From: an uncultured Planctomycetales bacterium
Lineage (GTDB): Bacteria > Omnitrophota > Gorgyraeia > Zapsychrales > Fredricksoniimonadaceae
DNA length: 42,013 nt
Direction of reading: 5' to 3'
NCBI GenBank assembly: GCA_964532095.1
Contig: CAZHGK010000006.1
Location: 1-42,013, forward strand
Position numbers and translations under genes: made by a program. The notes under the pieces are model-generated. The model saw only the letters and a program-made list of their open reading frames with translations, ran no database searches and was not told where the DNA came from. This document shows, piece by piece, positions 3 through 42,013 of the stretch. Every line of letters starts with the position of its first letter. Position 1 is the first letter of the stretch.

Positions 3-770
3 ACCGGCCAGAACTCTCTCACAACAGGTGGCACAACTAATAGGGGCAGGTCAGTTATTGTTTTAGGTGTTTGCATTGCGGTCGCAACCATAGTGGCCAG
101 TCTAATTCTGTCAGGCGGATTCTTGAAGGTGATGAAATTCTGGCAGCACACGATCTCTGTTAAAGGAACGGCCCAACAGATTATCAAAAGCGACTATATT
201 GTTTGGGATTGCACCTTTACAAGGCGAGGAGCAAGCCTTCAGCAAGCCTATAAAGAGCTCAAAGGTGATTTAGACAGTGTTGTTGCCTATATGAATGCCA
301 AACAGGTCAATAAAGCAGATATGCATATCAACCAAATTGTAACTAGCCGTGTTTATCAAAAAGATAAGGACGATAGAGATACCAACATTGTTGACAGCTA
401 TGTTCTAAGTCAAAGTATTGAAATTCGCTCCAATGATATTGATAAAATCGATGCGATTTCTCATCAATCGACTGAATTAATCGATCAGGGGATCAATTTT
501 GAATCCGCCACACCCAATTATTTTTACACAAAGATCGATACTCTAAAGGTGGAAATGCTATCCCAGGCAACTGAAAATGCTAAGTTAAGGGCAGAAAGCA
601 TGGTAAAATCTACAAGAAATAAGATTGGAATGCTTCAATCCGCCAAAATGGGCGTTTTTCAGATTACCCCCGTAACATCGGTCGATGTTTCGGATTATGG
701 TGAAAATGATACAAGCGCTTTAGATAAAAAAGTCATGGTAGTTGTGAATGCGTCTTTTATAATTGACTAG
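3..770 (+). CDS. SIMPL/DUF541-like envelope protein, 5'-truncated by the window edge
   Basis: The frame is open from nt 3 with no stop. The segment upstream of the GTG at 93 encodes a hydrophobic helix (SVIVLGVCIAVATIVASLIL), so the true start probably lies outside the window. The family call is from memory of SIMPL-domain proteins. Confidence 0.55.
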   Translation, partial: TGQNSLTTGGTTNRGRSVIVLGVCIAVATIVASLILSGGFLKVMKFWQHTISVKGTAQQIIKSDYIVWDCTFTRRGASLQQAYKELKGDLDSVVAYMNAKQVNKADMHINQIVTSRVYQKDKDDRDTNIVDSYVLSQSIEIRSNDIDKIDAISHQSTELIDQGINFESATPNYFYTKIDTLKVEMLSQATENAKLRAESMVKSTRNKIGMLQSAKMGVFQITPVTSVDVSDYGENDTSALDKKVMVVVNASFIID

Positions 771-824
771 GGGAAAACATGTTTAGATTCATGTTTGTAA
801 ATATTGCCTTTTGTCCACTTAAAT

Positions 825-868
825 AATGCTATTAACAGCATTGACAAACGATATAAATATGCTATATT
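825..868 (+). promoter_or_regulatory. Sigma70-like promoter with overlapping inverted-repeat operator upstream of the HTH/Fic pair
   Basis: TTGACA at 841-846, a 16-nt spacer, TATATT at 863-868. A perfect inverted repeat AATGCT-N6-AGCATT at 825-842 overlaps the -35. GGAG at 901-904 lies 7 nt before the ATG at 912. Confidence 0.4.
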
Positions 869-911
869 TATCATAAATAAGCAGTAGTATTATGCTAGAA
901 GGAGCATATTT

Positions 912-1379
912 ATGAGATATTGGGATCAAAAGAAGGTTTGTGAGCAGTTAGATCGGAAATTAAAGCCTTTAAAGGGTTTGGCGGAGTCTGGAATGCCAGA
1001 GCAAGGGTGGATTAAAAACTTGCGAGAGGCCTTAGGTTTTTCTGCGCGCCAGTTGGGAAAAAAGGTTGGGCTTGATCAGTCTCGTATTTCTCGTTTAGAA
1101 AATGCAGAAGAAGATGGAAGTTTGAAATTATCTTCTTTGCAGAAAATCGCTAAAGCGCTTAATATGAAGTTTGTTTATGGATTTGTACCACAAGGAAGCT
1201 TGGAACAGATGTTGAAAGATCAAGCAAGAAAGATTGCTCTTAAAAGACTTAAACAACTCAATGATACTATGCGCTTAGAAAAGCAAGGACTTGCAAAAGC
1301 AGATCAAGAGAAAGCATTAGAAGATATGATTAATAAGATCTTAATCGAACAACCAAAGGATTTTTGGAATGAAGAATGA
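912..1379 (+). CDS. XRE-type HTH protein, mobile mystery protein A type (putative antitoxin/regulator of the downstream Fic)
   Basis: HTH segment LREALGFSARQLGKKVGLDQSRISRLE. It overlaps the downstream Fic gene by 11 nt. This pairing is the known mobile mystery protein A/B arrangement. Confidence 0.8.
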   Translation: MRYWDQKKVCEQLDRKLKPLKGLAESGMPEQGWIKNLREALGFSARQLGKKVGLDQSRISRLENAEEDGSLKLSSLQKIAKALNMKFVYGFVPQGSLEQMLKDQARKIALKRLKQLNDTMRLEKQGLAKADQEKALEDMINKILIEQPKDFWNEE

Positions 1380-1959
1380 TTTTCAATATCCATTAGGGGC
1401 CACACCTCTTGATCCAGATGAGATTCAAGGGCTCAAAATAAAACATATTACAACTAGGGATGAGCTCAATCGTTGGGAGCAAGATAATATCAACGAGGCT
1501 CTTAGTTGGCTACAATCACGCAAGAAAAGTGATGTATTGACGGAGAAATTTATTAAAACTCTTCATCAAAGAATGTTTGGTAAGGTTTGGTGTTGGGCAG
1601 GAACTTTTAGGCGAAGCGGAAAGAATGTTGGAGTAGATTGGTCTCAAATTTCTGTTGCCCTACATACTCTTTTAGAAGATGTCCGTTTTTGGATTAAAGA
1701 AAAAACTTATTCTCCTGATGAAATTGCTGTTCGTTTTCATCATCGATTAGTGTGGATTCATATGTTTTCTAATGGTAATGGCCGTCATGCACGATTGATG
1801 TGTGATGTGCTATTAAAGGAAGTTTTACGACAAAAGCATTTTACATGGGGAATGAAGAATATTGATAAGGATGATGAAGCAAGGGAGCTTTATTTAAAGG
1901 CCCTTCGAAAAGCAGATAAGAATGACTATTCGTTGTTATTAAATTTTGTTCGTTCTTAA
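1369..1959 (+). CDS. Fic-domain protein, mobile mystery protein B type
   Basis: Fic motif HMFSNGNGRHARL (HxFxNGNGRxxR, with N where canonical AMPylators have D/E). Translationally coupled to the upstream HTH gene. Confidence 0.85.
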   Translation: MKNDFQYPLGATPLDPDEIQGLKIKHITTRDELNRWEQDNINEALSWLQSRKKSDVLTEKFIKTLHQRMFGKVWCWAGTFRRSGKNVGVDWSQISVALHTLLEDVRFWIKEKTYSPDEIAVRFHHRLVWIHMFSNGNGRHARLMCDVLLKEVLRQKHFTWGMKNIDKDDEARELYLKALRKADKNDYSLLLNFVRS

Positions 1960-2005
1960 AAGAATTTATTTTATTAATTAATCCGTTGTCGTAAAATTAT
2001 ATCCA

Positions 2006-2761
2006 ATGTCCAAATATTACAATTCCCAAAGAACGCGTAATATGTATGATCCCAGCTCAACCAAGCCTTTTCGTATTAGCCGCTCCAAGATTGATTTGTT
2101 CCTGAATTGCCCCAAGTGTTTTTATTTAGATAGGCGTTTAGGAATTGGCCAGCCTCCGAGTTATCCTTTTAATCTCAATTCAGCTGTAGATGCTTTGCTT
2201 AAAAAGGAATTCGACCTTTATCGTGCTAAGAATGAAGCTCATCCTTTAATGAAAGCCGCAGGTCTTGATGCAGTGGTATTTAATCATCCTCAGATAGATG
2301 AATGGCGCGATGCGCTTCGAGGAGGCATCACCTATGCCTATCCTGCTACAAATCTGCTATTAACTGGCGGGGTGGATGATGTTTGGGTAAACGCGCAAGG
2401 TGAGCTGATCATAGTGGATTATAAAGCTACATCTAAGGCGGATGGTGTAAGCCTTGATGCCGACTGGCAAATAGGCTACAAGCGCCAGATGGAAATTTAT
2501 CAATGGTTGTTTCGTAAGAATGATTTTAAGGTCAATGAGATTGGTTATTTTGTCTATTGCAACGGATTAACCAACGGGGAAGCTTTTAACAATCGATTAG
2601 ATTTTGACATCACTCTAATTGTTTACAAAGGCAACGACAACTGGGTGGATGATGCCGTTAAAAGGCTGTATACTTGTTTGCAATCTGATGAGATGCCAGA
2701 GTCGGGGGATGATTGTCAGTTTTGTCAATATAGGGATGCGGTACGATTTGTTTCTAAATAA
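2006..2761 (+). CDS. PD-(D/E)XK nuclease, Cas4/AddB-like with Cys cluster
   Basis: Motifs GVDDVW, IVDYKAT (D..[DE]xK) and QMEIYQW (QxxxY). N-terminal CPKC and C-terminal CQFC suggest an Fe-S cluster as in Cas4-type nucleases. Confidence 0.75.
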   Translation: MSKYYNSQRTRNMYDPSSTKPFRISRSKIDLFLNCPKCFYLDRRLGIGQPPSYPFNLNSAVDALLKKEFDLYRAKNEAHPLMKAAGLDAVVFNHPQIDEWRDALRGGITYAYPATNLLLTGGVDDVWVNAQGELIIVDYKATSKADGVSLDADWQIGYKRQMEIYQWLFRKNDFKVNEIGYFVYCNGLTNGEAFNNRLDFDITLIVYKGNDNWVDDAVKRLYTCLQSDEMPESGDDCQFCQYRDAVRFVSK

Positions 2762-2934
2762 GCAGAGCAATTTACGTCCTGTAATAGAAGTTACAGGAAG
2801 TGACAAGAGTTGCGAGAATTAGGACTTAACCAATATCAACTGTTCAGTTTTAAATAAGGATTATCAGCTGGTGAATAAACCAGTGGTTATTGACGTATAA
2901 AGTTTATCGGGCGGGCATATCAATAGCACGTTAT

Positions 2935-2975
2935 GTCCACCCGGTAAGAGTCTAAAACAAGACAAAAGGGTGGAC
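2935..2975 (+). promoter_or_regulatory. hsdR leader hairpin occluding the ribosome-binding site
   Basis: A perfect 8-bp inverted repeat, GTCCACCC (2935-2942) and GGGTGGAC (2968-2975). The second arm is the purine-rich tract 5-12 nt upstream of the hsdR ATG at 2980. Confidence 0.35.
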
Positions 2976-2979
2976 AATA

Positions 2980-5900
2980 ATGGCATTTAACGAAAATACC
3001 AGAGTAAAAATTCCTGCCATTTTGCACCTATGCCGTTTGGGATATCAGTATATTTCGTTATCTGATGCCAAATGGGATATTCACACCAATATCTTCACAG
3101 ATATTTTTTCCGCCAGCATTAAAGCGATCAACTCTGATAAGCAATTAGAAGATAGTGATATTAAGAAGGTTCTTGAAGATATTTCCTTGTGTCTAGACAA
3201 CGAGGATTTAGGGGAAGCTTTTTATAAGCTTATTACAGGGACAGCGGGAATTAAGTTGATCGATTTTAATGATTTTAGCAAGAATAGTTTTCATGTTGTC
3301 ACAGAGCTAACCTATAAAAATAGGGATGATGAATTTAGGCCGGACATAACTCTTTTAATAAACGGAATGCCGCTAGCGTTTATTGAAGTCAAGAAACCCA
3401 ACAATCACGAAGGGATACTAGCTGAGAGGGAGCGGATTAATACAAGGTTTAAGAATAAAAAGTTTAGAAGGTTTATTAACATTTCACAGTTATTGGTCTT
3501 TTCCAACAATATGGAATATGACCAAGATTCGATTGAACCCATTCAGGGTGCTTTTTACGCATCGCCTTCTTATGGGGATGCAATCTTCAACTGCTTTAGG
3601 GAAGAAGAACCAGAACCAATCTGTTCATTTGCAGATGAAGATGATGCGGTTGAGAATTTTATTCTAAAAGATAATAATCTCTCTGCGATTAAACACTCCT
3701 CAGAATTTCTAACAAACAAATCTTTGAATACCCCAACGAATAGAATCATCTCATCGCTATTTTGTCGCGAACGGTTCTCGATGCTCTTAAAATATTGTAT
3801 TGCATATGTTCAAGAGTCAAAGGGAATAGAGAAGCACATCATGCGATATCCGCAGTTATTTGCCATGAAGGCGATTGCTCACAAGATCGACAAGGGGATA
3901 AAGAAGGGAATTATTTGGCATACGCAAGGCAGTGGTAAGACTGCATTGTCTTATTGTAACGTTCAATTCTTAACTGATTACTTCCAGAAAAAGCGTGTTG
4001 TGCCAAAGTTTTACTTTATTGTGGATCGTCTTGATTTAATGATTCAGGCCAAACGTGAATTCACGATCAGGGGACTGACAGTTACCACTGTCAATTCGAA
4101 AGATGAATTGTTAAACCATTTCAGGTTAAAGCAAGCCATTCATAATTTGTCCGGTAAGCGTGAGATTACGGTTGTTAATATTCAAAAATTCGAGAATGAT
4201 CCGGATCTTCTGCAGACCAATGATTATGATATCAGTATCCAACGTGTGTATTTTCTTGATGAAGTTCATCGAAGCTACAACCCCACCGGCAGTTTCTTGG
4301 CAAATCTTTTTAGTTCAGACAGAAACGCTATATTAATTGGTTTAACGGGAACCCCGCTTATTTTATCTGACAGACGTTCTCGGGATATTTTTGGAGACTA
4401 TATCCATAAATATTATTACAACGCCTCAATTGCTGATGGTTACACATTGCGATTGATACGAGAGGGGATTGAAACGAATTATAGAATTCAACTGCAACAA
4501 GCGCTTAAAGAAATTGAGATTCTTAAAGGTGATGTAGATCGGCGTGTTGTTTATGCTCATGAGAAATTTGTTGAGCCAATGCTGGGTTACATTATTCAAG
4601 ATTTTATTAAAAGCAGGATCCGTTTTGGTGATCATACCATTGGAGCCATGGTTGTTTGCGATAGCGCGGATCAGGCGAGAGAACTATTTGACATATTCGT
4701 TGGCAAATATAACCATGAGCAAGGAACAATTGAACCTGATCGTTCCATGCGTGTTGAAGATCCAACGCCAGAATATAAAGCATATCAACAAGAGCACGGT
4801 CATCTTGTCTGTTCTTTAATCTTGCATGATGTGGGATCAACGGATGACCGCAAGCAAGAGATCGATGATTTTAAAGAAGGCAAAATCGACATTTTGTTTG
4901 TATTCAACATGCTTCTGACAGGGTTTGATGCCAAGCGCTTAAAGAAGCTTTATTTAGGGCGCATCATTAAAGACCATAATTTGTTGCAAACCCTGACGCG
5001 TGTTAATCGTCCATATAAGAAATTCAGGTACGGATATGTGGTTGATTTTGCCGATATACGAAAAGAGTTTGAAGCGACTAATAAAGCTTATTTTGACGAA
5101 TTGCAGGCGGAGCTAGGGGATGAAATAAAGACGTATTCTAATCTTTTTAAATCAAAAGAAGAGATCGAGAATGAAATCGCCGATATAAAAGAAAAACTTT
5201 TTCATTATGATTTGCTTAATGCTGAAGTTTTCTCGCAACAAATAAGTCAGATTGAAGACCGCAATAAGGTTTTGGAAATCAAGAAGGCATTGGAAAGCGC
5301 GAGGAATCTATACAATATCATTCGACTCTTTGGTCACTATGAACTTCTTGAGAAGCTGGACTTTAAGAAATTAAATCAGCTTTATAACGAAACTGCTCGG
5401 CATCTTGATTTGCTTAATCTCAAGGAAACTGTCCAGAATAGTGTTGATACTACCAACTTGCTTAACGTAGCGCTGGAAAACGTAATTTTTATGTTTCGGA
5501 AAATTTCCGAAGAGGAAATGATTATTGCCGATCAGCTTAAAGATATGCTTCGAAAGACGCGTGAAGCATTAGGCAATAATTTTGATAAGAAAGATCCTGA
5601 ATTTGTATCTCTTTACGATGAATTAAAACGGTTATTTGATAAAAAGAATCTGGATGAAATTTCCCAAGAGCAAATGAAACAAAACATCGCCTCTTTACAG
5701 AAGATATTTGACAAGGTAAGTGAGCTTAATCGCCAGAACAATCTTCTTAAAGCAAAATACGAGAATGACGAGAAATATGCCCGCGTTCATAAAAGAATCT
5801 TGGAGAAAGGGTCAATCTCAAAACGGGAGAGTGATATTTGCAATGCCTTGATGGCTATAAAAAGTCAAGTTGATGAAAAAGTCCTCAGCAATACCAGAAT

Positions 5901-6057
5901 TCTAGATAATGAGAGTTATTTTAACGGCATGCTCTTTCCAATGACAATCAATGGATTTGAGAGTATCGATATTGAGCTTGATCCAGATTCAGCTGATTTT
6001 ATTAATTCCTCTGTGGCAAAAGAATATGTGAATGAGTACGAAGGAGTAGGTGTCTAA
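2980..6057 (+). CDS. hsdR: Type I restriction enzyme R subunit
   Basis: N-terminal PD-(D/E)XK nuclease (RPDITLL...FIEVKK). SF2 motor motifs HTQGSGKTALS, FLDEVHRS and GLTGTP. Long coiled C-terminus. Followed by hsdM and hsdS. Confidence 0.95.
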   Translation: MAFNENTRVKIPAILHLCRLGYQYISLSDAKWDIHTNIFTDIFSASIKAINSDKQLEDSDIKKVLEDISLCLDNEDLGEAFYKLITGTAGIKLIDFNDFSKNSFHVVTELTYKNRDDEFRPDITLLINGMPLAFIEVKKPNNHEGILAERERINTRFKNKKFRRFINISQLLVFSNNMEYDQDSIEPIQGAFYASPSYGDAIFNCFREEEPEPICSFADEDDAVENFILKDNNLSAIKHSSEFLTNKSLNTPTNRIISSLFCRERFSMLLKYCIAYVQESKGIEKHIMRYPQLFAMKAIAHKIDKGIKKGIIWHTQGSGKTALSYCNVQFLTDYFQKKRVVPKFYFIVDRLDLMIQAKREFTIRGLTVTTVNSKDELLNHFRLKQAIHNLSGKREITVVNIQKFENDPDLLQTNDYDISIQRVYFLDEVHRSYNPTGSFLANLFSSDRNAILIGLTGTPLILSDRRSRDIFGDYIHKYYYNASIADGYTLRLIREGIETNYRIQLQQALKEIEILKGDVDRRVVYAHEKFVEPMLGYIIQDFIKSRIRFGDHTIGAMVVCDSADQARELFDIFVGKYNHEQGTIEPDRSMRVEDPTPEYKAYQQEHGHLVCSLILHDVGSTDDRKQEIDDFKEGKIDILFVFNMLLTGFDAKRLKKLYLGRIIKDHNLLQTLTRVNRPYKKFRYGYVVDFADIRKEFEATNKAYFDELQAELGDEIKTYSNLFKSKEEIENEIADIKEKLFHYDLLNAEVFSQQISQIEDRNKVLEIKKALESARNLYNIIRLFGHYELLEKLDFKKLNQLYNETARHLDLLNLKETVQNSVDTTNLLNVALENVIFMFRKISEEEMIIADQLKDMLRKTREALGNNFDKKDPEFVSLYDELKRLFDKKNLDEISQEQMKQNIASLQKIFDKVSELNRQNNLLKAKYENDEKYARVHKRILEKGSISKRESDICNALMAIKSQVDEKVLSNTRILDNESYFNGMLFPMTINGFESIDIELDPDSADFINSSVAKEYVNEYEGVGV

Positions 6058-7679
6058 TGACTCAAGATATTATTTCAAAAACAAAAGCGTTAATTGATGG
6101 ACTTAAAGGCACGTGTGCCAATTATGGCCTTGGTAATGACGGCAATGAATACAAGATCATCACACAGGCGTTTCTTTATAAGTTTATGAACGATAAGTTT
6201 AGTTATGAAGTCAAAGAGCTTGATTCCAAGCTTAAGAATGCCGGGAATTGGGAACAGGAGATTGCGAAATATTCCGACAAGCAATATGATATGCTTCTTA
6301 AACGCATGGGCCCTGATAGCGCTAAGTTAAAAAGGGAACATTTCTTGTCGAACCTTCATAATAAACAAAACATAGAACAGTTTGCCAAGTTTTTTGATGA
6401 CACCTTGCGCGACATAGCCATTTTTAATAATGAAATTTTCTCGGTCAAGACTGGACGGGGAGCCAAGGTCACGTTGTTCGATGAATTAAGCAATTACATC
6501 ACAGATAGCTCCAAGCGGGATGATTTCTGCCGTGCCATTGTTAATCAGCTTATAAATTTTAGTTTTGAGAAGATTTTTGCGCAGAAGTTTGATTTCTTCT
6601 CGACCATATTTGAATACTTGATTAAAGATTACAACAAAGATGGTGGTGGTAAATACGCCGAATATTACACGCCCCATGCTGTTGCAAAGATCATGGCGGC
6701 CATTCTAGTGGATAAGCCGGTAAAGAATGTTACCTGTTATGATCCATCCGCGGGGTCTGGACAATTGCTTATGAATCTTGCACATGCGATAGGAGAGGAT
6801 CGTTGTACGATTTATTCACAGGATATTTCGCAGAAGTCATCAAGCATGTTGCGTTTGAATCTGATTTTAAATAATCTTGTCCATTCTATTCAAAACATTA
6901 TTCAAGAGAATACGTTGCTTAATCCATATCATAGGGTTGGCGACAAACTCATGACCTTTGATTACATCGTTTCAAATCCGCCGTTTAAGTTGGATTTTAG
7001 CGATTGGTGTGATGCTTTAGATACAAAGCAAAATCATGGTCGTTTTTTTGCCGGAATACCGAACATTCCTAAAAAAGATAAAGACAAAATGGCCATATAT
7101 TTGCTCTTTATCCAGCATATTATCTTTTCGCTTTCACCAAATGGTAAAGCGGCCATTGTCGTTCCAACAGGCTTTTTGACAGCCCAAAGTGGAATTGAGA
7201 AAAAGATTCGCGAGAAGTTAGTTGAAGAGAAGATGCTCCGTGGCGTTGTCTCAATGCCAAGTAATATTTTTGCCACAACGGGCACGAACGTATCAATTTT
7301 ATTCTTGGATGGTACCAATACAAAAGGTGATATTGTTTTGATGGACGCGTCGAAACTGGGCACCACTGTAAAAGAAGGCAAGAATCAAAAAACGCTACTT
7401 TCAGAAGCTGAAGAACTATTAATTATTGAAACCTTTAATAAGCACGAAGCCAAAGAAGATTTTACTGTAGTGGTTTCTTACGAGCAGATAAAAGAAAAGA
7501 ACTACAGCTTTAGTGCAGGGCAATACTTTGAAGTAAAAATTGACTATACTGACTTAACCCCTGCGGAATTTGAAACTAAAATTCATGGCTTTAAATCCAA
7601 CTTGGACAGCCTTTTTGCAGAATCAAAGACTTTAGAAAAAGAAATTCAGAAACAATTAAATGGGTTGAAGTATGAGTAA
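6057..7679 (+). CDS. hsdM: Type I restriction-modification N6-adenine DNA methyltransferase M subunit
   Basis: EYYTPHAV, DPSAGSG (SAM binding) and the NPPF catalytic motif. Its start overlaps the hsdR stop (TAATG). Confidence 0.95.
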   Translation: MTQDIISKTKALIDGLKGTCANYGLGNDGNEYKIITQAFLYKFMNDKFSYEVKELDSKLKNAGNWEQEIAKYSDKQYDMLLKRMGPDSAKLKREHFLSNLHNKQNIEQFAKFFDDTLRDIAIFNNEIFSVKTGRGAKVTLFDELSNYITDSSKRDDFCRAIVNQLINFSFEKIFAQKFDFFSTIFEYLIKDYNKDGGGKYAEYYTPHAVAKIMAAILVDKPVKNVTCYDPSAGSGQLLMNLAHAIGEDRCTIYSQDISQKSSSMLRLNLILNNLVHSIQNIIQENTLLNPYHRVGDKLMTFDYIVSNPPFKLDFSDWCDALDTKQNHGRFFAGIPNIPKKDKDKMAIYLLFIQHIIFSLSPNGKAAIVVPTGFLTAQSGIEKKIREKLVEEKMLRGVVSMPSNIFATTGTNVSILFLDGTNTKGDIVLMDASKLGTTVKEGKNQKTLLSEAEELLIIETFNKHEAKEDFTVVVSYEQIKEKNYSFSAGQYFEVKIDYTDLTPAEFETKIHGFKSNLDSLFAESKTLEKEIQKQLNGLKYE

Positions 7680-8793
7680 AGAAAATAGAAATGCTCAGCT
7701 TGGTGATATTTATGATTTCCAATATGGTATGGGGAATACAATTGAAGATATTGGTGGAGATTATCCAATTTACGGGAGTAATGGTGTTGTTGGTTTTACT
7801 AATGTTTATAACAGTGAAGATGCGCCAGTTATTGGTCATATTGGCGCCTACGCAGGAATCGTAAATTGGGCGACAGGAAAACATTTCGTTACATACAATG
7901 GTGTTATCTGTCGAATTAAAAAAGGAATAAACCCAAGATTTGGTTACTATTTACTCTTACATTCTAAACTTCAGAAAAGATTGAGAGGAAGTACACAACC
8001 GTTTATTTCCTATGATTTATTAGATGATGTAAGGATTTTTTTACCTGAAAAAGTAATTCAAGATAATATCGCCTCCGTTCTTTCCGCATTAGATTCCAAA
8101 ATTGAACTCAACAACCGCATCAATACTGAATTAGAAGCCATGGCCAAGACGCTTTATGATTACTGGTTTGTGCAGTTTGATTTTCCAGACAAAAACGGCC
8201 AGCCATATAAATCCAGTGGTGGGAAGATGGTTTGGAATTCGGAGTTAAAGCGTGAAATTCCAGAGGGGTGGGGAGCAGTTACAATAAAACAAATACTAGC
8301 TAAAGAGAGCTCCACAAAGAAAATTCAATCTTCAGAAATAAGACAAAATGGGGCATTTCCAGTCATTGATCAAAGCACGGACTTTATTGCTGGATATACA
8401 GATGACATAGAGTCGATCATAAATGTTGAAGAGCCAAGAATAATCTTCGGTGATCATACTCGGATTTTAAAGCTGATAAATTTTGATTTTGCTCGTGGGG
8501 CCGATGGAACTCAAGTAATGTTATCTAATAATCGGCGCATGCCGCAGCACCTTTTTTTTCATACCTTACTTAAGATCGATTTATCGAATTATGGCTATGC
8601 GCGACATTATAAGTTTCTTAAGGATCAAAGAATAATATTGCCCGATGAAGCGGTTGCTTCAACATTTAACGAGATGGTTTGTAAATTTTATGAACATATA
8701 AAACAGAACACGTTTCAGAATATTGAGCTTTCTGAACTCCGAGACTGGCTTCTTCCTATGCTTATGAACGGTCAGGTTAAGGTCAATATTTAG
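7672..8793 (+). CDS. hsdS: Type I restriction-modification specificity subunit
   Basis: Two target-recognition halves separated by the conserved central helix LDSKIELNNRINTELEAMAKTLYDYWFVQFDFP. A second conserved helix lies at the C-terminus. 8-nt overlap with hsdM. Confidence 0.9.
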   Translation: MSKENRNAQLGDIYDFQYGMGNTIEDIGGDYPIYGSNGVVGFTNVYNSEDAPVIGHIGAYAGIVNWATGKHFVTYNGVICRIKKGINPRFGYYLLLHSKLQKRLRGSTQPFISYDLLDDVRIFLPEKVIQDNIASVLSALDSKIELNNRINTELEAMAKTLYDYWFVQFDFPDKNGQPYKSSGGKMVWNSELKREIPEGWGAVTIKQILAKESSTKKIQSSEIRQNGAFPVIDQSTDFIAGYTDDIESIINVEEPRIIFGDHTRILKLINFDFARGADGTQVMLSNNRRMPQHLFFHTLLKIDLSNYGYARHYKFLKDQRIILPDEAVASTFNEMVCKFYEHIKQNTFQNIELSELRDWLLPMLMNGQVKVNI

Positions 8794-8802
8794 GGATACT
8801 GA

Positions 8803-10476
8803 ATGGCAAGGGTCTACGAATTAAAAATTAATAATTTCAGGGGGATTAAAAGCTTTTCCCAAAAATTCAATAAGCATTTTAATTGCATATTAGGTCGTGG
8901 CGACTCTTGTAAGACAACAATTTTAGATGCTATTGCTTATGTGTTATCTCCGAGTTGGAATCCTTCTTTTTATGATAGTGATTTTTATGGTGGGAATCCC
9001 AATGACCTTATAGTGATCGAAGCATCCTTAGTTACCGTCCCGAATGAATTGATAAATGAAGATAAGTACGGGCTTTACATTAGGGGGCTTGATAATAATG
9101 GCAATATACAGGATGAAGTACAAACTGATCATGAAAAAATTATGACGGTAAGGCTTGAAGTCGGAAAAGATTTAGAACCACAGTGGTACGTGATTAGTAA
9201 CAGACAAGACCCTATGAGAATGCCATCCGTAGATAGGGCAAAATTAAATGTATTCATGGTTTCTGATTATATTGATCGGCATTTTTCTTGGAGCAAAGGT
9301 AATCCTTTATATTCGATTTTAAAAGAACTGCCGTCTACTGCTGAAAAGAAAAACGACGTTATCATTGAGGCATTGCGTGAAGCGAAAGAAAAAATAGATC
9401 AGGAAAGTTTTAGTCAGTTTAATGATGTCACGAATCGCATAAAGAAAGTTTCATCAAATCTTGGTATTGATTTGTCTGGGGCAAAAACTACTATTGATTT
9501 CAGAGACGTGACCATAAAGGACGGGAGGGTCTGCCTTCATGATGGTGATGTTCCATTACGATTGAAAGGCAAAGGAACGAAAAGATTGATTTCAATAGCA
9601 ATACAAACGATCCTTGTTCAACAAGGTGGAATTATGTTGATTGATGAGGTGGAACAAGGGCTGGAACCTGACAGAGTTAAACATTTGGTCAGATCTTTAA
9701 AGAAAGATAATCCTGGTCAAATATTTATCACCACTCATTCAAGTGAAGCGATAACAGAGTTGGATATCGAGGATTTGGTTATTATAAACAATCAGGGAGG
9801 CGTTATTACGGCATCTGCTCCAAACAAAGATTTTCAGAACGTCGTTAGGGCCTGTCCAGAAGCTGGATTTGCAAAGAAGGTCATTGTTTGTGAGGGAAAA
9901 ACAGAAATAGGAATTTGTCGGGCGTTAGATAGTTATCGTAAAGATTCCGGCAAGGAGTACATGTCAGTAAAAGATTGCGTCTATGTTGATGGGGATGGCG
10001 GGAGCAATTTTACGGACAGGGCTTTAAAATTGAACGATTTTGGAAAAGACGTTGCTGTTTTCTGTGATTCAGATGCTGATAGCAATCTGAATCCTTCCAA
10101 AAGTGATTTAACTGCAAAGTCGATCAAGATATTTGATTGTGAAGCTGGTAATTCCATTGAAGCTCAGGCCTTTAATGATTTGCCATGGGACGGGATTAAA
10201 GAGCTTTTTTTGTATGGAGAGAAGATAACTTCAGAGGCAATCGTTTTAAACAGCATTAAAAGTGAGCATGGAAATGGTTTGTCTGATAATTGGAAAGATG
10301 TGGATGCCGCAAATACGCGGTTAGCTTTAGGGAAAGCCGCCAAAAATTGCAAATGGTTTAAGCGTATTGATCAGGGAGAATTTCTTGGGTCGGTCATTTT
10401 AAAATATTTGGGTGATATGAATAATAAAAAAATAAAAGAGCAGTTAGAAAACCTTTCAAATTGGATAGATGCATAA
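8803..10476 (+). CDS. OLD-family nuclease (ABC-type ATPase + Toprim), class 2 / GajA-like
   Basis: N-terminal ATPase motifs: degenerate P-loop GRGDSCKTT, signature-like KGKGTKRL, Walker B IMLIDEVEQGLEP, and TTHS. C-terminal Toprim motifs VIVCEGKTE and FCDSDAD. The next gene is a UvrD-like helicase. Confidence 0.8.
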   Translation: MARVYELKINNFRGIKSFSQKFNKHFNCILGRGDSCKTTILDAIAYVLSPSWNPSFYDSDFYGGNPNDLIVIEASLVTVPNELINEDKYGLYIRGLDNNGNIQDEVQTDHEKIMTVRLEVGKDLEPQWYVISNRQDPMRMPSVDRAKLNVFMVSDYIDRHFSWSKGNPLYSILKELPSTAEKKNDVIIEALREAKEKIDQESFSQFNDVTNRIKKVSSNLGIDLSGAKTTIDFRDVTIKDGRVCLHDGDVPLRLKGKGTKRLISIAIQTILVQQGGIMLIDEVEQGLEPDRVKHLVRSLKKDNPGQIFITTHSSEAITELDIEDLVIINNQGGVITASAPNKDFQNVVRACPEAGFAKKVIVCEGKTEIGICRALDSYRKDSGKEYMSVKDCVYVDGDGGSNFTDRALKLNDFGKDVAVFCDSDADSNLNPSKSDLTAKSIKIFDCEAGNSIEAQAFNDLPWDGIKELFLYGEKITSEAIVLNSIKSEHGNGLSDNWKDVDAANTRLALGKAAKNCKWFKRIDQGEFLGSVILKYLGDMNNKKIKEQLENLSNWIDA

Positions 10477-11894
10477 TGAATCATTCGGAGTTTATTTCTA
10501 AACCTAAAATTATGGTAATTGCTCCTGCTGGTTATGGAAAGACGCATGCCATTGCTGAATGTTTAAAACACACAAAAGGGAAGCAGCTGATTTTAACTCA
10601 TACGCATGCGGGAGTAGCTTCTTTAAAAGATAAAATACACGAGCTGGGCGTTGAAACAGATCGGTATCGCGTTGAGACTATTACTGGTTTTGCCCAGAAA
10701 TATGTTAAAGCTTTTTATTGCGGACAAGATGTGCCGGAGCAGGAGAATTCAGAAGCGTATTATCCGTTTTTAATCGAAAAAGCACGAATTATATTAAATA
10801 TGCTTCCTATTCGTAATGTTATTAAAGAGACATATTCAGGGTTATTTGTTGATGAATATCAGGATTGTACTAAGAATCAACATGATCTGATCGCCGTTTT
10901 GGTTGACATATTACCGACACGTATTTTAGGAGATTATCTTCAAGGAATTTTCGATTTTAAGGGGCAGGCACTGGTAGATTTTAATAGTGATTTACAAGGC
11001 TTTGAACGATACCCAGATTTAGAAAATCCATGGCGCTGGAAAAACACGAATCCCAATTTGGGTGATGAATTGAAAAAGATTAGAGTCAAGATCGAGGGTA
11101 AGGAAAATATAGATTTGAGTCTACACGAAGCGCATATTGAAGTCGTGCAGGCAGATGAACAGGATAAATTTACATACAATTCAAATTATAATAAAAAGAT
11201 CTGGGATTTGACCAAAGAGGACAATGTGCTAATTATGCATCCCGAAAGCGGCAGTCTTGCCGTAAGAAAAGATTTTGTAAGTCGATTTAAGAATGCCTTT
11301 GGTTTAATTGAAGCTATTGATCATAAGGATTTTTATGAGTTCTCGCGGAAGCTAGATTCAATAAGTATCAGCAATGTTTACGCTGTCATTTATAATTTAA
11401 TTCCTGAAGTATTTAACGGTACGTCGAGCAGGGATATATGGTTTAGTCAAAACGGCGTTAAAAATAAAAGAAATGTCAGTGACAAGGCTTTGATTGCTCC
11501 ATTAGTAGAGAATATTGCTGAATTGAAGCAAAAGATTTCTTTCGCGATGATCGCTAATGTTTTAAAGCAAGTCAAAGATTTGCCTGATATTAAGTGTTGG
11601 CGAACAGAGCTTTTTTGGGATTTATGTAAAGCGTTAGAGAAGGCCGATCATAAAAAGATTTCGGTGTACGAGGCAATGAAAGAAATAAGAAATGTTAAAA
11701 GAAAATTTGGGAGAAGAGTAAGTGGCAGATGTATCGGTACGACTTTATTAACAAAAGGACTTGAGTTTGATACGGTAGCTATATTGGATGCTCATAAATT
11801 TAGATGTCGCAAGAATTTTTATGTTGCGGTCACAAGGGCGTGTAAGAAATTGATAATTTTTACAAACAACAAGGTTATTTCGTTGTTAAATTAA
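10476..11894 (+). CDS. SF1 UvrD/PcrA-like helicase, GajB-like
   Basis: Motifs APAGYGKTH (I), FVDEYQD (II), GDYLQGIFDF (III), TKGLEFDTV (V), YVAVTRACKKLII (VI). The ATG at 10476 overlaps the upstream stop as TAATG; the ORF-track TTG at 10461 is the alternative start. Confidence 0.85.
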   Translation: MNHSEFISKPKIMVIAPAGYGKTHAIAECLKHTKGKQLILTHTHAGVASLKDKIHELGVETDRYRVETITGFAQKYVKAFYCGQDVPEQENSEAYYPFLIEKARIILNMLPIRNVIKETYSGLFVDEYQDCTKNQHDLIAVLVDILPTRILGDYLQGIFDFKGQALVDFNSDLQGFERYPDLENPWRWKNTNPNLGDELKKIRVKIEGKENIDLSLHEAHIEVVQADEQDKFTYNSNYNKKIWDLTKEDNVLIMHPESGSLAVRKDFVSRFKNAFGLIEAIDHKDFYEFSRKLDSISISNVYAVIYNLIPEVFNGTSSRDIWFSQNGVKNKRNVSDKALIAPLVENIAELKQKISFAMIANVLKQVKDLPDIKCWRTELFWDLCKALEKADHKKISVYEAMKEIRNVKRKFGRRVSGRCIGTTLLTKGLEFDTVAILDAHKFRCRKNFYVAVTRACKKLIIFTNNKVISLLN

Positions 11895-11899
11895 TTCTT

Positions 11900-12460
11900 A
11901 TGTTGACGCTTCGCTTAACCAGTAAAGCTTTGAATGAATTACCGCTCCCCAAGTCAGCCGTCTTGACCTTGCCCGAGCATGGGAGCGTGTTGGAAGATTG
12001 GTATGTGCATGTGTTTGTCCATGAAAAGCGGCGGCATTTGATGTTTACGCACGCGGGGTCGCTGGTGTCGTTTGTGGCATCCGGCGTTTATCAGCGTGAT
12101 ATGAAGGATTTGGAAAAGATTTTCAGGCGGGAGTTTAGCCGGTTTCTGGTGTTTGAGAAATTTGACCAGCAGGATATTTTGATGTTCCAATTAGCCTTGG
12201 GTGATATGCGTTTGGCCAAGACCATTGACCGCAGGGTCACAGGGTCGATGGTTCAACTCATTGAGAATTATAAATGGTATGTGAGCGACGCGTATAATCA
12301 TAAGGAGCATGCGCCAGAGGATTATGCGCTCTATGAATTAAACCGTATTCCCCTGGGGGCTTTAAAATATGCGTTTGCCATTGAAAATTTCCATAAAACC
12401 GTGGACGCGCTCAAAGGGTTTCACCACATCCCCGGGCAAGGGGTTGTGGGGTTGAATTAG
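11900..12460 (+). CDS. Hypothetical protein, compositionally foreign. It resembles an uncharacterised DUF-type family from memory (possibly DUF6933), unverified.
   Basis: 186-aa ORF starting 5 nt after the helicase stop. Its 5' third is about 50-60% G+C, against about 37% in the flanking genes. No motif I can assign. Confidence 0.65.
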   Translation: MLTLRLTSKALNELPLPKSAVLTLPEHGSVLEDWYVHVFVHEKRRHLMFTHAGSLVSFVASGVYQRDMKDLEKIFRREFSRFLVFEKFDQQDILMFQLALGDMRLAKTIDRRVTGSMVQLIENYKWYVSDAYNHKEHAPEDYALYELNRIPLGALKYAFAIENFHKTVDALKGFHHIPGQGVVGLN

Positions 12461-12471
12461 GAGATATTTAG

Positions 12472-13521
12472 ATGGATGAAACGACAAAATCAGAAATAAT
12501 TCTATATAAAACGGATGATGGCAAGGTAAAGCTAGAAGTCCGGCTTGAAAATGAAACAGTTTGGATGAGTCAGAAATTGATGGCTGAATTGTTTCAAAAA
12601 GATGTTCGTACCATTAATGAACATTTGAATAACATTTATGCAGAAGGTGAGCTTCAATCAAAAGCAACTATCCGGAAATTCCGGATAGTTCAAAAAGAAG
12701 GCGTTCGTGAAGTAGCTCGTGAAGTCGATTTTTATAATTTAGAGGTAATTATTGCGGTTGGTTACCGGGTCAAATCTCAGAGGGGTACCCAATTTAGACA
12801 GTGGGCGACCCAACGTCTTAATGAGTATTTGGTTAAAGGTTTTACCATGGACGATGATCGCCTCAAGGAAGGCGTAAATATTGGCTCTGATTATTTTGAT
12901 GAAATCCTCGAGCGTATCAGGGATATCCGCTCAAGTGAAAAACGATTTTATCAAAAAATACGGGATATTTATAAACTAGCAGTTGATTATGATCCTAAAG
13001 CTGAAGAAACTTTGGAATTTTTTAGGATAGTTCAGAATAAGCTGCATTTTGCTATTTCAGGAAAAACAGCCGCTGAATTGATTGCTGAACGTGCAGATTC
13101 GTCAAAACCCAATATGGGATTAACTTCTTGGAAAGGATCTAAGGTTCGTCCAGGAGATGTAATAATTGCTAAAAATTATCTTAATGCTACAGAAATTGAA
13201 GGTCTAAATCGAATTGTGACCATGTATCTGGATTATGCTGAAGATCAAGCCAAACGCCATAAGCAGATATTTATCAAGGACTGGCGGCAAAAGTTGGATG
13301 CTTTTCTTAAGTTCAATGAACGGGATATTTTGAATAATGCCGGGAAGGTGGCCAAAGAAGTTGCTGATAATTTAGCGCTCGAAGAGTACGAGCGTTTTAA
13401 TACAAAACGATTAAAGAAGGAAGTTAAAGACGAGACGCTAGCTGATGATGCAGAGTTCAAGTTGATCGAAGATACGATAAAGAAAATCCCCAAGACCAAA
13501 AAGCAAGCTAAAAAGCGCTAA
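12472..13521 (+). CDS. RhuM-family protein
   Basis: The N-terminal region ILYKTDDGKVKLEVRLENETVWMSQKLMAELF...VIIAVGYRVKSQRGTQFRQWATQRL matches my memory of the RhuM family, which often sits in type I R-M loci. GGAG lies 8 nt upstream of the ATG. Confidence 0.8.
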   Translation: MDETTKSEIILYKTDDGKVKLEVRLENETVWMSQKLMAELFQKDVRTINEHLNNIYAEGELQSKATIRKFRIVQKEGVREVAREVDFYNLEVIIAVGYRVKSQRGTQFRQWATQRLNEYLVKGFTMDDDRLKEGVNIGSDYFDEILERIRDIRSSEKRFYQKIRDIYKLAVDYDPKAEETLEFFRIVQNKLHFAISGKTAAELIAERADSSKPNMGLTSWKGSKVRPGDVIIAKNYLNATEIEGLNRIVTMYLDYAEDQAKRHKQIFIKDWRQKLDAFLKFNERDILNNAGKVAKEVADNLALEEYERFNTKRLKKEVKDETLADDAEFKLIEDTIKKIPKTKKQAKKR

Positions 13522-13658
13522 TAAACCATAAAAAGACCTATTACTTTTCATTTCTACAACTAGATATAATATATGTTATGTTAACCATTTATATAGGAAA
13601 TCGCTTGAATTAGCCTTTATGCTGTAGCTTTACTCTTCATTGGTTTTTTGCTTGAAAT

Positions 13659-14657
13659 TTACATCATTTGGTAGCGTGCTGCGCGGGTATTTCCCTTCTT
13701 AATCACTATCCCAGCCTTAACTAATGGCGCAATCAGCTGGTTCACTCTAGCTCGATTAATATCCATTATTTTGCTAATTTGGCTGGAACCTATATCTTCC
13801 TGTTTCTTTACTATTTCTAGTAATTCTTTTTGTTTTGGCGTCCATTGACCGCTATTAATTTTCATATTGGCCAATTGCTTACTTAACTGTTCAATGCTTT
13901 TTAAAAGACCTTGAGAAAAATAGTCAATCCAATAGGTATAATCACCATCCATATCATCGGTTTCTCGAAGCATTTGGTAGTATTTAGCACGATCTGCAGC
14001 AAAGTATTCATCCAGACCTAAAGAATATGTCGATTTATATCCTTGTTGTATCAAAATCCATTGTGACAAAGCTCTCGCCATCCTACCATTTCCATCTGTA
14101 AATGGATGAATCGTGACAAATTCATGATGAAAAATGGCGCTCAATACCACTGCGTCTTCGTTTTCGGCATTTTTAAGCCACGACAATAGTTTTTTCATTC
14201 GCTTTTTAACATCTTGAGGTTTTGGAGGTGTAAAAATTATTTTGCGTCTTGCATTAACTACGTAATTTTGTATTTTTCTCCAATGACCACTGCGTTTAGG
14301 TGAAAGCAAATTTTTAGTCATTAGAGCATGTAAGTTAAGAATTCGGTTGGAATTTAAAGGGAGTTTAGAGTTTTTAATTACCCATTGCATGGCATTAATG
14401 CAGTTTCTGACTTCAAGTTTTTGGTCTTCTTGAGCAATAACGTCTTTTCCTTCAACAAGCGCAGAGACTTGAGCTAAGGATAAGGTGTTTCCTTCAATCC
14501 ACGTAGAAGAATGAATATCTCGACTGAATGCTTGTTGGCTGATTTCCTTCCAGATCGATGGGTTTAGGGAATATTTTTCCAGAGCTTTAGATAGTAAAGC
14601 AATTCGCTGGAGATTGTTAACAAAATAGTTTGTTATGCGATAAGTTGGTTTAAACAT
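13659..14657 (-). CDS. Class II Fic protein (AMP-transferase type) with C-terminal winged-helix domain
   Basis: Canonical Fic motif HPFTDGNGRMARAL. An N-terminal inhibitory-helix motif STWIEGN ([ST]xxxE[GN]). The C-terminal segment QISKIMDINRARVNQLIAPLVKAGIV looks like a wHTH. Confidence 0.9.
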   Translation of the reverse strand: MFKPTYRITNYFVNNLQRIALLSKALEKYSLNPSIWKEISQQAFSRDIHSSTWIEGNTLSLAQVSALVEGKDVIAQEDQKLEVRNCINAMQWVIKNSKLPLNSNRILNLHALMTKNLLSPKRSGHWRKIQNYVVNARRKIIFTPPKPQDVKKRMKKLLSWLKNAENEDAVVLSAIFHHEFVTIHPFTDGNGRMARALSQWILIQQGYKSTYSLGLDEYFAADRAKYYQMLRETDDMDGDYTYWIDYFSQGLLKSIEQLSKQLANMKINSGQWTPKQKELLEIVKKQEDIGSSQISKIMDINRARVNQLIAPLVKAGIVIKKGNTRAARYQMM

Positions 14658-36748: not shown

Positions 36749-36764
36749 AGGTGTAAAAGTCGGG

Positions 36765-36789
36765 TTATAAAGTCGGGACGGTGGGGCTT
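36765..36789 (-). repeat. Direct duplicate of the tRNA-Pro 3' end plus trailer
   Basis: The 25-nt TTATAAAGTCGGGACGGTGGGGCTT is identical to 36893-36917, at an offset of exactly 128 bp. A third partial copy, AAAGTCGGG, lies at 36755-36763. Confidence 0.95.
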
Positions 36790-36892
36790 CTTCTCCCCCG
36801 GTCTGACATTCGTCAGACCTCCTCCGAAGCCGGCCAGTCTCGCTTGTACCTGTGGCGCTCGACTTGGCTTCAAGCCCCGACAAAATATTATT
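36790..36892 (-). other. Structured ~100-nt element between tRNA-Pro and its 3'-end duplicate
   Basis: Minus-strand stems: GGGGCTT/AAGCCCC closing stem, CCA-GTC/GAC-TGG, CCG-GCTT-CGG, and GGTCTGAC-GAAT-GTCAGACC. Its 5' part, GGGGCTTGAA, is the reverse complement of the tRNA T-loop/stem TTCAAGCCCC. Confidence 0.6.
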
Positions 36893-36900
36893 TTATAAAG

Positions 36901-36975
36901 TCGGGACGGTGGGGCTTGAACCCACGACCTCTTGAACCCCATTCAAGTGCGCTAATCCAACTGCGCTACGTCCCG
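36901..36975 (-). tRNA. tRNA-Pro (anticodon GGG)
   Basis: Hand-folded cloverleaf: acceptor CGGGACG/CGTCCCG with A73, D-stem GCGC/GCGC, anticodon arm CTTGA-ATGGGGT-TCAAG (U33, GGG, G37), T-arm GTGGG-TTCAAGC-CCCAC. CCA is not encoded. Confidence 0.9.
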
Positions 36976-37009: not shown

Positions 37010-37038
37010 ATTTTAACAGCTAAGGCAAATAGCGTCAA
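37010..37038 (-). promoter_or_regulatory. Sigma70-like promoter for tRNA-Pro
   Basis: On the minus strand: TTGACG (37038-37033), a 17-nt spacer, TAAAAT (37015-37010). This lies about 35 nt upstream of the tRNA 5' end. Confidence 0.55.
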
Positions 37039-41771: not shown

Positions 41772-41823
41772 AGTGGTTTATTATAGGGAAATATAAAGGG
41801 GACTGTTACTATTTTTGAAGAAT

Positions 41824-41852
41824 TATATATTGGAGCGGGCTTAAGAGAATCG
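41824..41852 (-). repeat. Direct duplicate of the tRNA-Gly 3' end (T-arm 3' half, acceptor, CCA, trailer)
   Basis: TATATAT-TGGAGCGGGC-TTA-AGAGAATCG compared with 41951-41979 TATATATC-TGGAGCGGGC-GG-AGAGAATCG. The TGGAGCGGGC cores are exactly 128 bp apart (41831 and 41959). Confidence 0.9.
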
Positions 41853-41950
41853 GCACCTTCGCTCACTTTGTTCGCTTCAGGTTGGCCCCCCGCTCTATGA
41901 ATTGCTCTTATTCATCGCAATTCATAAACAGAGCTCCTTTCGATTCTCTT
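41853..41950 (-). other. Structured ~100-nt element between tRNA-Gly and its 3'-end duplicate
   Basis: On the minus strand, AAGAGAATCG (plus-strand 41941-41950) pairs perfectly with CGATTCTCTT in the duplicate. There is an internal 13-bp hairpin CTCT..ATGAATTGC/GCAATTCAT-AGAG. GAGCGGG can pair with CCCGCTC like an acceptor stem. Confidence 0.55.
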
Positions 41951-41958
41951 TATATATC

Positions 41959-42013
41959 TGGAGCGGGCGGAGAGAATCGAACCCTCGCTACTAGCTTGGA
42001 AGGCTAGAGTTCT
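41959..42013 (-). tRNA. tRNA-Gly (anticodon UCC), 5' part cut by the window edge
   Basis: The visible 3' 55 nt fold as anticodon arm CTAGC-CTTCCAA-GCTAG (U33, TCC), T-arm GAGGG-TTCGATT-CTCTC, acceptor 3' strand CGCCCGC, discriminator T, and an encoded CCA. Confidence 0.85.

Follow-up and report, generated by a model that had tools for sequence, protein, structure and literature searches.

At the right-hand end of a 42,013-nucleotide stretch of DNA assigned to the Omnitrophota (assembly GCA_964532095.1, contig CAZHGK010000006.1, positions 1 to 42,013; hereafter the window), a tRNA-Gly(UCC) gene is followed by a folded insert of about 100 bases and then by a second copy of its own 3′ end. We propose that this second 3′ end is probably the right-hand target duplication of a small non-coding insertion element, which entered at the T-loop/3′ end of the tRNA and kept the tRNA gene intact. 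The family to which the insert behind tRNA-Gly belongs is conserved and covarying, and this insert is full-length: it scores 114.9 bits against the family covariance model (E = 3e-32) and carries all of the defining family features. This family of ~100-base folded elements, which lie behind many tRNA genes in Omnitrophota, is apparently undescribed, and we provisionally call its members tRNA T-loop elements. An initial annotation of the window had taken the identical 128-bp period at two different tRNAs as a hint of a common mechanism or of a tRNA-specific structured RNA class, and the match of the Gly insert to the family supports that suggestion.

All features of the Gly element, and of a second insert behind tRNA-Pro(GGG) 5 kb away, are described on the minus strand. 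The 3′ part of tRNA-Gly(UCC) occupies 41959–42013, with its 5′ end cut off by the end of the window (Rfam tRNA match 41962–42013, 34.5 bits, 5′-truncated); CCA is encoded, A76 falls at 41959, and full-length orthologues of the gene are present in L001, L006, L011 and other loci of the set that we compared (L numbers denote these loci throughout). The left copy of the duplicated block (41950–41979) runs from C56 to A76 (41959–41979) and on into the flank GATATATAA. The right copy (41823–41852; CGATTCTCTTAAGCCCGCTCCA ATATATAA) holds C56 to A76 at 41831–41852 and 8 nt of flank, so that the flank ATATATAA is duplicated too (41950–41957 and 41823–41830). The copies are identical in 26 of 30 aligned columns, which bears out the claim that the tRNA-Gly 3′ end had been copied; the second copy has ‘TAA’ in place of ‘CC’ at positions 65–67 and is missing one G after CCA. 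The motif TGGAGCGGGC starts at 41831 and at 41959, and the CCA ends are 128 nt apart; because of the indel between the copies, the C56-to-C56 spacing is 127 nt.

Read in the direction of the tRNA, the insert begins with a segment complementary to the T-arm, the anti-T (AAGAGAATCG, 41941–41950). It forms the 5′ strand of a helix, P1, by pairing with C56–T65 of the right copy, whose first 10 nt are the 3′ strand, and it is the perfect complement of CGATTCTCTT there, as was first reported for a 10-bp anti-T-arm at the insert start. The junction J12 (AAAGGA, 41935–41940; the family form is AAGGA or AAAGGA, from the alignment) leads into the P2/P3 hairpin, GCUCUG...CAUAGAGC, at 41892–41934 (43 nt), which is placed by the consensus fold with its compensatory changes and by covariance-model alignment. 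This hairpin is the 9 + 4 bp internal hairpin seen at the outset, and its terminal loop, GAUGAAUAAGA, has the form of a tandem G.A motif. The junction GGGG and P4 (GGCCAACCUG...GAAGGUGC) follow at 41853–41891, with the second arm itself spanning 41853–41887; P4 corresponds to the GGCCGACC...GGCGC arm of the family and is without its optional extra hairpin. The whole insert folds at −43.1 kcal/mol (z = −4.3), and none of 200 shuffles folded as well. Beyond the second copy, 60 nt separate its CCA end from the start codon of a glycosyltransferase gene, a distance similar to that at empty orthologous loci. The best homologues of this glycosyltransferase are proteins of Omnitrophota metagenome-assembled genomes (MAGs), and a promoter-like site lies between the element and the gene, at 41780–41809 (minus strand).

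Relatives of the Gly insert were gathered through homologues of this glycosyltransferase gene: 70 loci were fetched, and their duplicated tRNA ends were tabulated. Inserts behind tRNA-Thr (L018, L022, L074) and tRNA-Tyr (L019, L080) can be aligned with the Gly insert from end to end. Scanning metagenome contigs with a degenerate core pattern gave 66 loci, some 47 of them genuine and the remainder chance matches in GC-rich coding DNA, and a profile search with nhmmer returned 64 matches. For every profile match that has a tRNA on its contig, the tRNA lies 15–75 nt upstream on the same strand; the family is confined to positions behind tRNA genes. The element-bearing tRNAs represent 16 anticodons (Thr-TGT, Tyr-GTA, Leu-GAG/TAA/TAG, Arg-CCG/ACG, Met-CAT, Gln-TTG, Ala-CGC, Lys-CTT, His-GTG, Val-CAC, Gly-GCC/TCC and Asn-GTT), and in every element whose 3′ end is on the contig the tail is a copy of its own upstream tRNA from C56, usually with an exact run of 13–29 nt. 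The early description of the insert as ‘not a simple dispersed repeat’ is right for the ends, which are re-specified for each tRNA, and wrong for the core, which is a dispersed repeat found only behind tRNAs. The same architecture in dozens of independent assemblies also excludes an assembly artefact, which had been named as a possible explanation of the duplicates.

All members with a named organism are Omnitrophota MAGs, some of them binned as ‘Planctomycetales’; loci from other phyla in the same locus set gave no family match, and viral contigs gave no match to the core pattern. When the window was searched against Rfam 15, only its two tRNAs passed the gathering score, and with E up to 10 nothing overlapped the Gly insert or the Pro insert; the element of L019, searched likewise, had no match either. 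Literature searches found no published description of such elements, which is not proof of absence.

Across the family, the order of parts is an optional A/T-rich trailer, the anti-T, J12 (AAGGA), P2/P3 (loop GAYGAAYARGA), GRGK, P4 and the tRNA copy. The trailer is conserved as TWTTAAAGAATTACTAT in several subfamilies. The inserted core is ~98 nt in the window Gly element and ~88–150 nt across the family, and most of the length variation stems from the optional extra hairpin in P4. The anti-T is complementary to nucleotides 56–63 of its own tRNA, and the tRNA copy begins at C56 in the T-loop, reaches the 3′ end and continues for 0–10 nt. Comparison of the members shows that the predicted family fold is a conserved three-way junction. 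In P2–P4, compensatory changes occur at 16 of 25 consensus pairs among 38 members, and at two positions a G.U pair is conserved (28/38 and 24/38 members). In P1, formed by the anti-T with the copy of 56–63, the inner 8 pairs are made in nearly all of 30 members; its covariation is 0.452, compared with 0.202 after shuffling (0/500 shuffles reach 0.452) and 0.07–0.16 in slid registers. The check for covariation proposed in the initial annotation is therefore positive in P2–P4 and in P1 alike, and the anti-T-arm proves to be a general feature, matched to the local tRNA in ~30 members and a dozen tRNA types. In one subfamily, G57 and A58 stand opposite A and G, which is the tandem G.A form; the P3 loop and the P4 internal loop have this form too, always on the tRNA-sense strand. 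Taken as structure, these features look more RNA-like than DNA-like.

The complementarity of the anti-T is genuine. We considered that the anti-T might derive from the 5′ half of the T-arm as a degenerate direct copy and rejected this at the non-palindromic T-loops of Gly (CGAUU) and Leu (CAAUU), where it is the true complement of 56–63 and not the sense of 49–55. Where the two tRNA copies differ, the evidence for its partner is mixed: L074, L117 and L093 favor the copy in the tRNA, and the window Gly element favors the second copy. In the Tyr lineage, the stretch 5′ of the anti-T is an imperfect inverted copy of the acceptor strand with its CCA, in which TGGTG is CACCA reverse-complemented. 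This pattern suggests that an inverted target copy may be made or corrected by templating, through fold-back or template switch, more than by slow compensatory mutation.

Comparison of closely related genomes shows insertion polymorphism: near relatives are filled or empty at the same tRNA. The empty alleles L013, L029 and L012 share a tRNA-Thr followed by CCA and the flank CCAGATAGAG..., with no element. In the filled allele, L088, the element is present, the second copy and its flank read ...AGCT CCAGATAGA, which is the same flank as in the empty alleles, and the first copy has lost CCA and is followed by the trailer. At other orthologous sites, no intact element was found in 46 tRNA-Gly(UCC) loci or in 21 tRNA-Pro(GGG) loci. 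The duplicated block is 18–31 nt and variable, with its left edge fixed at C56 and its right edge anywhere from N73 to 10 nt beyond the tRNA end; in the window Gly element and in L123, the repeat extends 8 nt past CCA into the flank, and the inserted piece is the anti-T plus the core only.

A comparison of cores shows that they have spread between different tRNAs. The cores of L142 (Tyr) and L092 (Arg-CCG) do not differ at any of 90 core columns (100% identity), and a single cluster at ≥90% identity covers Thr, Tyr, Arg, Met, Gln and Leu, whereas identity between elements behind one tRNA type can be as low as 61–74%. Remnants of elements (L020, L074, L022), mutated second copies (L117, L114, L140, L096) and tandem arrays (L083, L122, L144) all occur. 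The elements are too short for protein coding and contain no open reading frame (ORF).

Two further observations touch on these alleles. Encoded CCA varies among the orthologous Tyr, Thr, Gly and Pro tRNA genes of close relatives (L001–L080), and in L001 the spacer after a CCA-less tRNA-Tyr (ttttttCACCACT) holds the end of an apparent lost second copy; some CCA-less tRNA genes may be scars of past element insertions. In L144 (1354–3570), a 1.8-kb segment lies between two tandem elements and a third copy and contains an ORF that is methyltransferase-like, as judged by eye. The third copy has no acceptor tail, and a truncated tRNA-Gly 3′ end stands before it.

The spacing of 128 nt, which first drew attention to the two inserts of the window, does not have the meaning given to it. 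The same offset does occur at tRNA-Pro, where the repeat is a perfect 25 nt, yet an identical 128-bp period as a shared geometry or mechanism does not hold for the family: offsets in 35 measurable members range from 117 to 175 nt (median 146, sd 15), and 128 is found in 2 of the 35 and 127 in one. The spacing is made up of 98 + 30 nt at Gly and 103 + 25 nt at Pro. Because equal sums here arise from unequal parts and the family offsets vary, we regard the 128/128 agreement as a coincidence that reflects no constraint; the chance of an exactly shared offset between two random members is ~0.02.

The Pro insert itself has a less certain place. The tRNA-Pro(GGG) gene (36900–36975, by ARAGORN and Rfam) contributes the left copy of its block (36893–36917, from A57 to A73 plus CTTTATAA), which is followed by an insert of 103 nt (36790–36892) with an anti-T, GGGGCUUG, at 36871–36878 and a hairpin, GGUCUGACGAAUGUCAGACC, at 36800–36819. 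The right copy (36765–36789) repeats 36893–36917 perfectly at a spacing of 128 nt, and a third mini-repeat of 9 nt, CCCGACTTT, follows it directly at 36756–36764. The flank beyond this mini-repeat resembles the original flank in relatives, and the mini-repeat is probably what an earlier insertion and deletion left behind at this position. The Pro insert folds with z = −3.9 and shares with the family its position, the anti-T and the direct copy (from A57), while its likeness in the core is weak. It is the second-best covariance-model match in the window, at a weak 10.9 bits that is owed partly to the tRNA-like tail (E = 0.25 window-wide, 0.0011 on 181 nt). The family profile gave no nhmmer match to it, and neither blastn nor nhmmer found a relative in 1.29 Mb of related loci. 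Its core contains GGTCTGACGAATGTCAGACC and GACTGGCCGGCTTCGG, and GCGAGACUGGCCGGCUUCGGAG resembles the family’s GCGAGUGGCCGACCCGGAG in a comparison by eye only. Gly and Pro thus agree in position, anti-T and copy, and the covariance-model score does not demonstrate that they belong to one family; that the Pro insert is a very divergent or rearranged relative is possible and unproven. Upstream of tRNA-Pro lies a promoter-like site (37010–37038, minus strand; TTGACG-17-TAAAAT with TG). No terminator-like site follows the tRNA-Pro gene, the Pro element or the Gly element in the window, and read-through into the PilZ gene is therefore possible.

How might such an element move? We propose that the folded strand would be the tRNA-sense strand, most likely as RNA made by read-through from the tRNA promoter, or as an equivalent single-stranded DNA, and that an enzyme encoded at another site would copy the element into further tRNA genes. 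A first cut in the T-loop and a second cut at a variable distance downstream would be expected to generate a duplication of variable length, as in target-primed insertion, and the anti-T could either select the target or be templated from it. It is also possible that recombination in the T-loop involves a small circle or a folded single strand with a tRNA 3′ end of its own; this route and the copying route are indistinguishable because the two copies are identical. In a more specific version, which we put forward only tentatively, the element would be a bacterial counterpart of short interspersed nuclear elements (SINEs) or a self-programmed guide element: a ~100-nt RNA, generated by read-through from the tRNA promoter and 3′ processing, would be copied into other T-loops by a reverse transcriptase or an RNA-guided enzyme encoded in trans, with the 8–13-nt anti-T as its selector. 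The variable-length duplication with one fixed edge is the sole point consistent with a target-primed retroposon. That the mechanism is of a new type is likewise a speculative suggestion.

Several points weigh against insertion with target duplication as we propose it. The insertion point is not placeable within the repeat, because the copies are identical, and an element that carries its own tRNA 3′ end, in the manner of a phage attachment site (attP), would produce the same picture as a target duplication. Terminator-like hairpins lie between the tRNA and the core in 6 of ~45 copies and argue against obligatory co-transcription. A Pfam screen of the window’s first 20 ORFs for a partner enzyme found no recombinase, reverse transcriptase or transposase, and no extrachromosomal, circular or autonomous form was seen. 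In several subfamilies the anti-T stands between the conserved trailer and the core, yet it varies with the tRNA while the core is identical, and no known insertion mechanism simply explains an internal, tRNA-matched segment of this kind. The metagenome sampling is also biased, since the scan demanded the conserved core pattern.

The RNA-like character of the fold invites a different explanation, namely that the element is a structured small RNA gene that serves the host or itself at the RNA level, is transcribed with the tRNA and is freed by tRNA-processing enzymes. The copy of 56–76 and P1 would then mimic a tRNA 3′ end, whether to allow processing, stability or the addition of CCA or to act as decoy or sponge, and the duplications would have arisen by local duplication and gene conversion with the neighboring tRNA. 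Conservation of an RNA type (compensatory changes, G.U pairs, three tandem-GA motifs and the tRNA-sense strand) is what such a gene would display. In L088, elements lie inside a tRNA operon, in the order Thr-element-Tyr-element-Gly, so that they must be co-transcribed with the tRNAs; no terminator intervenes between the promoter-like site of the window tRNA-Pro and the Pro element, and several downstream copies have CCA where the tRNA gene itself has none. The empty L013 allele shows that the original host gene accounts for this CCA, and the distribution of the elements is not that of a host gene: only 6 covariance-model matches lie beside 140 tRNAs in loci picked regardless of the element, and near-identical genomes differ in its presence. 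Identical cores occur at different tRNAs, remnants are found, the acceptor part of the tail decays freely, and in the window and L123 the duplication enters flank that is not tRNA. We consider a small RNA gene unlikely.

A further possibility is recombination. A classical miniature integrative element would be a small circle with its own tRNA 3′ end that recombines in the T-loop by means of a tyrosine or serine recombinase supplied in trans, and in a folded single strand P1 could rebuild a duplex site, in the way of integron attC or the attP of CTX phage. On the left, the repeat invariably begins in the T-loop; on the right, it stops at or just past the tRNA 3′ end, and a repeat from T-loop to tRNA 3′ end is reportedly the rule for integrase attachment sites in tRNA genes. 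Tandem arrays resemble cassette arrays, the anti-T and the T-copy sit at opposite ends of the core like the R″ and R′ boxes of attC, and the first copy may lack CCA while the second retains the host CCA and flank. Such an element would nevertheless have to rewrite its attachment site at every target switch, given 16 tRNA specificities and one conserved core (100% in some pairs); a circle of 120–170 bp is very small for double-stranded recombination; and GGGCGC to the left of the crossover is unlike the 5′ strand of the T-stem, leaving the second half-site absent. The fold is a three-way junction with conserved loops and not a simple imperfect hairpin, and no locus has an integrase beside an element. 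We judge this explanation to be distinctly improbable. Integrated elements usually leave as their scar a partial tRNA 3′ copy downstream of the tRNA gene, and the two inserts could then be relics, attL-remnant-attR, of internally deleted prophages or islands, with the two 128-nt spacings accidental. The Pro insert, with no detectable relatives in 1.29 Mb, would suit such an origin. For the Gly insert it is excluded by ~47 copies that share ends, helix order and compensatory changes: the end points of deletions would vary from case to case, no locus holds a long version, and viral contigs are unmatched. As an account of both inserts, relics are thus very improbable. Insertion of a small non-coding element with duplication of its target is the reading that we prefer.

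Other features of these loci deserve mention in their own right. Many independent assemblies break inside or beside tRNA-Gly(UCC), both in the window (42013 is the contig end) and at the starts of L002–L006, L011, L017, L021 and L023, and this clustering suggests repeats or strain heterogeneity there. When oriented by the glycosyltransferase gene, the Thr-Tyr-Gly tRNA cluster of L001, L002, L018 and L052 is inverted compared with that of L006, L007, L012 and others; L001 and L006, of opposite orientation, encode an identical glycosyltransferase protein (P0030). A second type of small hairpin insert, with TCCC...GGGA ends, lies directly after ‘TTC’ in a loop (D, anticodon or T) of a broken tRNA copy (L026, ~2570–2820 and ~3170–3305; L075, upstream of 1979–2049 on the minus strand; L007, 9180–9310; L077, 12980–13050). 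The broken copies lie a short way upstream of an intact gene for the same tRNA in three loci (L026, L075, L007) and a short way downstream in L077; this insert looks like another mini-element that targets tRNA loops and may possibly be related to IS200/IS605. L007 also contains two Y1 (HUH, IS200-like/RAYT-like) transposase genes (PF01797; 2449–3063 and 3979–4569), 5–7 kb from the tRNA cluster and with no link to the elements shown. Far from both tRNAs, the window carries a defense island (93–14657, from a Pfam screen) with SIMPL, HTH + Fic, a PD-(D/E)XK nuclease and a type I restriction-modification system (hsdR 2980–6057, hsdM 6057–7679, hsdS 7672–8793). An OLD-type ATPase/TOPRIM gene (8803–10476) adjoins a UvrD-like helicase gene (10461–11894), a pair that resembles Gabija, and DUF6933, RhuM and Fic-MarR follow.

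If our proposal is right, Omnitrophota host very small elements that insert into essential tRNA genes, do them no harm and contain a segment always matching the local tRNA, even where the rest of the element is identical. Such matching implies a templated or guide-like choice or copying of the target, and mechanisms of this kind have repeatedly become tools for genome engineering; should the SINE-like or guide version hold, it would represent a new class of programmable mobile element, harmless to the tRNA that it enters. The family would also add a well-supported structured motif with no Rfam counterpart, namely a strongly covarying three-way junction that holds three motifs of the G.A type, and would account for partial tRNA copies and the variable loss of encoded CCA, possibly also for the frequent contig breaks at tRNA clusters.

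Set beside known systems, the element can be likened to a tRNA-targeting integrative element, because the tRNA is restored and the repeat begins in the T-loop, and to a miniature inverted-repeat transposable element (MITE), because it is small, non-coding and mobilized in trans. With the integrative elements that use tRNA genes as attachment sites (attB), that is, prophages, integrative and conjugative elements and genomic islands, it shares an intact tRNA, a direct repeat from T-loop to 3′ end, a fixed orientation and the capacity to form arrays. Unlike these, its insert is 88–150 nt and has neither an integrase nor any other gene, a single core serves 16 tRNA specificities, and it possesses an internal target-complementary segment and a covarying fold. 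An integrase-bearing island, or a deletion derivative of one with arbitrary ends, is ruled out: ~47 copies share ends and architecture and have no ORF. The bacterial MITEs and small repeats (Correia/NEMIS, ERIC, REP/BIME, RUP and palindromes derived from IS200/IS605) are similarly small, structured, non-coding, multi-copy and trans-mobilized, with presence/absence variation and decay. The present element differs in lying only behind tRNAs, in its duplication of 18–31 nt with one fixed and one variable edge, and in an inverted repeat that is target sequence and changes with the target. We set aside classification as a MITE on two counts: the terminal inverted repeats are not the element’s own, since anti-T and T-copy differ between tRNAs even where the core is 100% identical, and the duplicated block varies over 18–31 nt where the target-site duplication of a MITE would be short and constant in length. 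A longer element built on the same core, as expected of an autonomous parent, was not seen in the 66 metagenome loci or in viral contigs.

Integron attC sites and CTX phage attP are of comparable size (~60–140 nt), with basal inverted segments that rebuild a target-like duplex, a crossover at a GTT-type motif (for the element, GGTTC in the T-loop) and units that can be arrayed. They fold as one imperfect hairpin with extrahelical bases, whereas the element is a three-way junction with conserved loops; it has no GTTRRRY core, cassette gene or nearby IntI, and its tandem G.A and G.U pairs are more RNA-like. The three-way junction, the T-loop site C56–N63 and the tRNA neighbors rule out an integron attC site. 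Target-primed reverse transcription of SINEs and long interspersed nuclear elements (LINEs), and the pairing of exon-binding with intron-binding sites (EBS-IBS) in group II introns, offer parallels in the variable duplication, the non-autonomous state, a possible ride on tRNA transcription and processing, and a short internal segment complementary to sequence beside the insertion site. Unlike them, the element has no known reverse transcriptase partner, no poly-A or other 3′ tail and no ribozyme domains; to our knowledge, nothing SINE- or LINE-like of this kind has been described in bacteria.

The TnpB omega-RNA and the IS110 bridge RNA come close in another respect: a scaffold of ~100 nt is followed on its 3′ side by ~18 nt identical to the flanking target, and segments match both target strands. 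In the element, however, the first 8 nt of what would be the guide are paired with an anti-guide inside the scaffold, both matching segments fall on the same target positions and not neighboring ones, no tnpB or IS110 gene is adjacent, and the intact upstream tRNA would itself be targeted. An IS200/IS605 derivative or omega-RNA would sit 3′ of a set tetra- or pentanucleotide and duplicate nothing, with subterminal hairpins at either end and an unpaired 3′ flank as guide. The long duplication and the internal pairing of the first 8 nt of the 3′ flank rule out an IS200/IS605 derivative or a TnpB omega-RNA, and an IS110 bridge RNA is set aside for the same differences. The tRNA T-loop element is a small non-autonomous insertion element with an unusual target-matched helix, and it fails the defining tests of the known classes.

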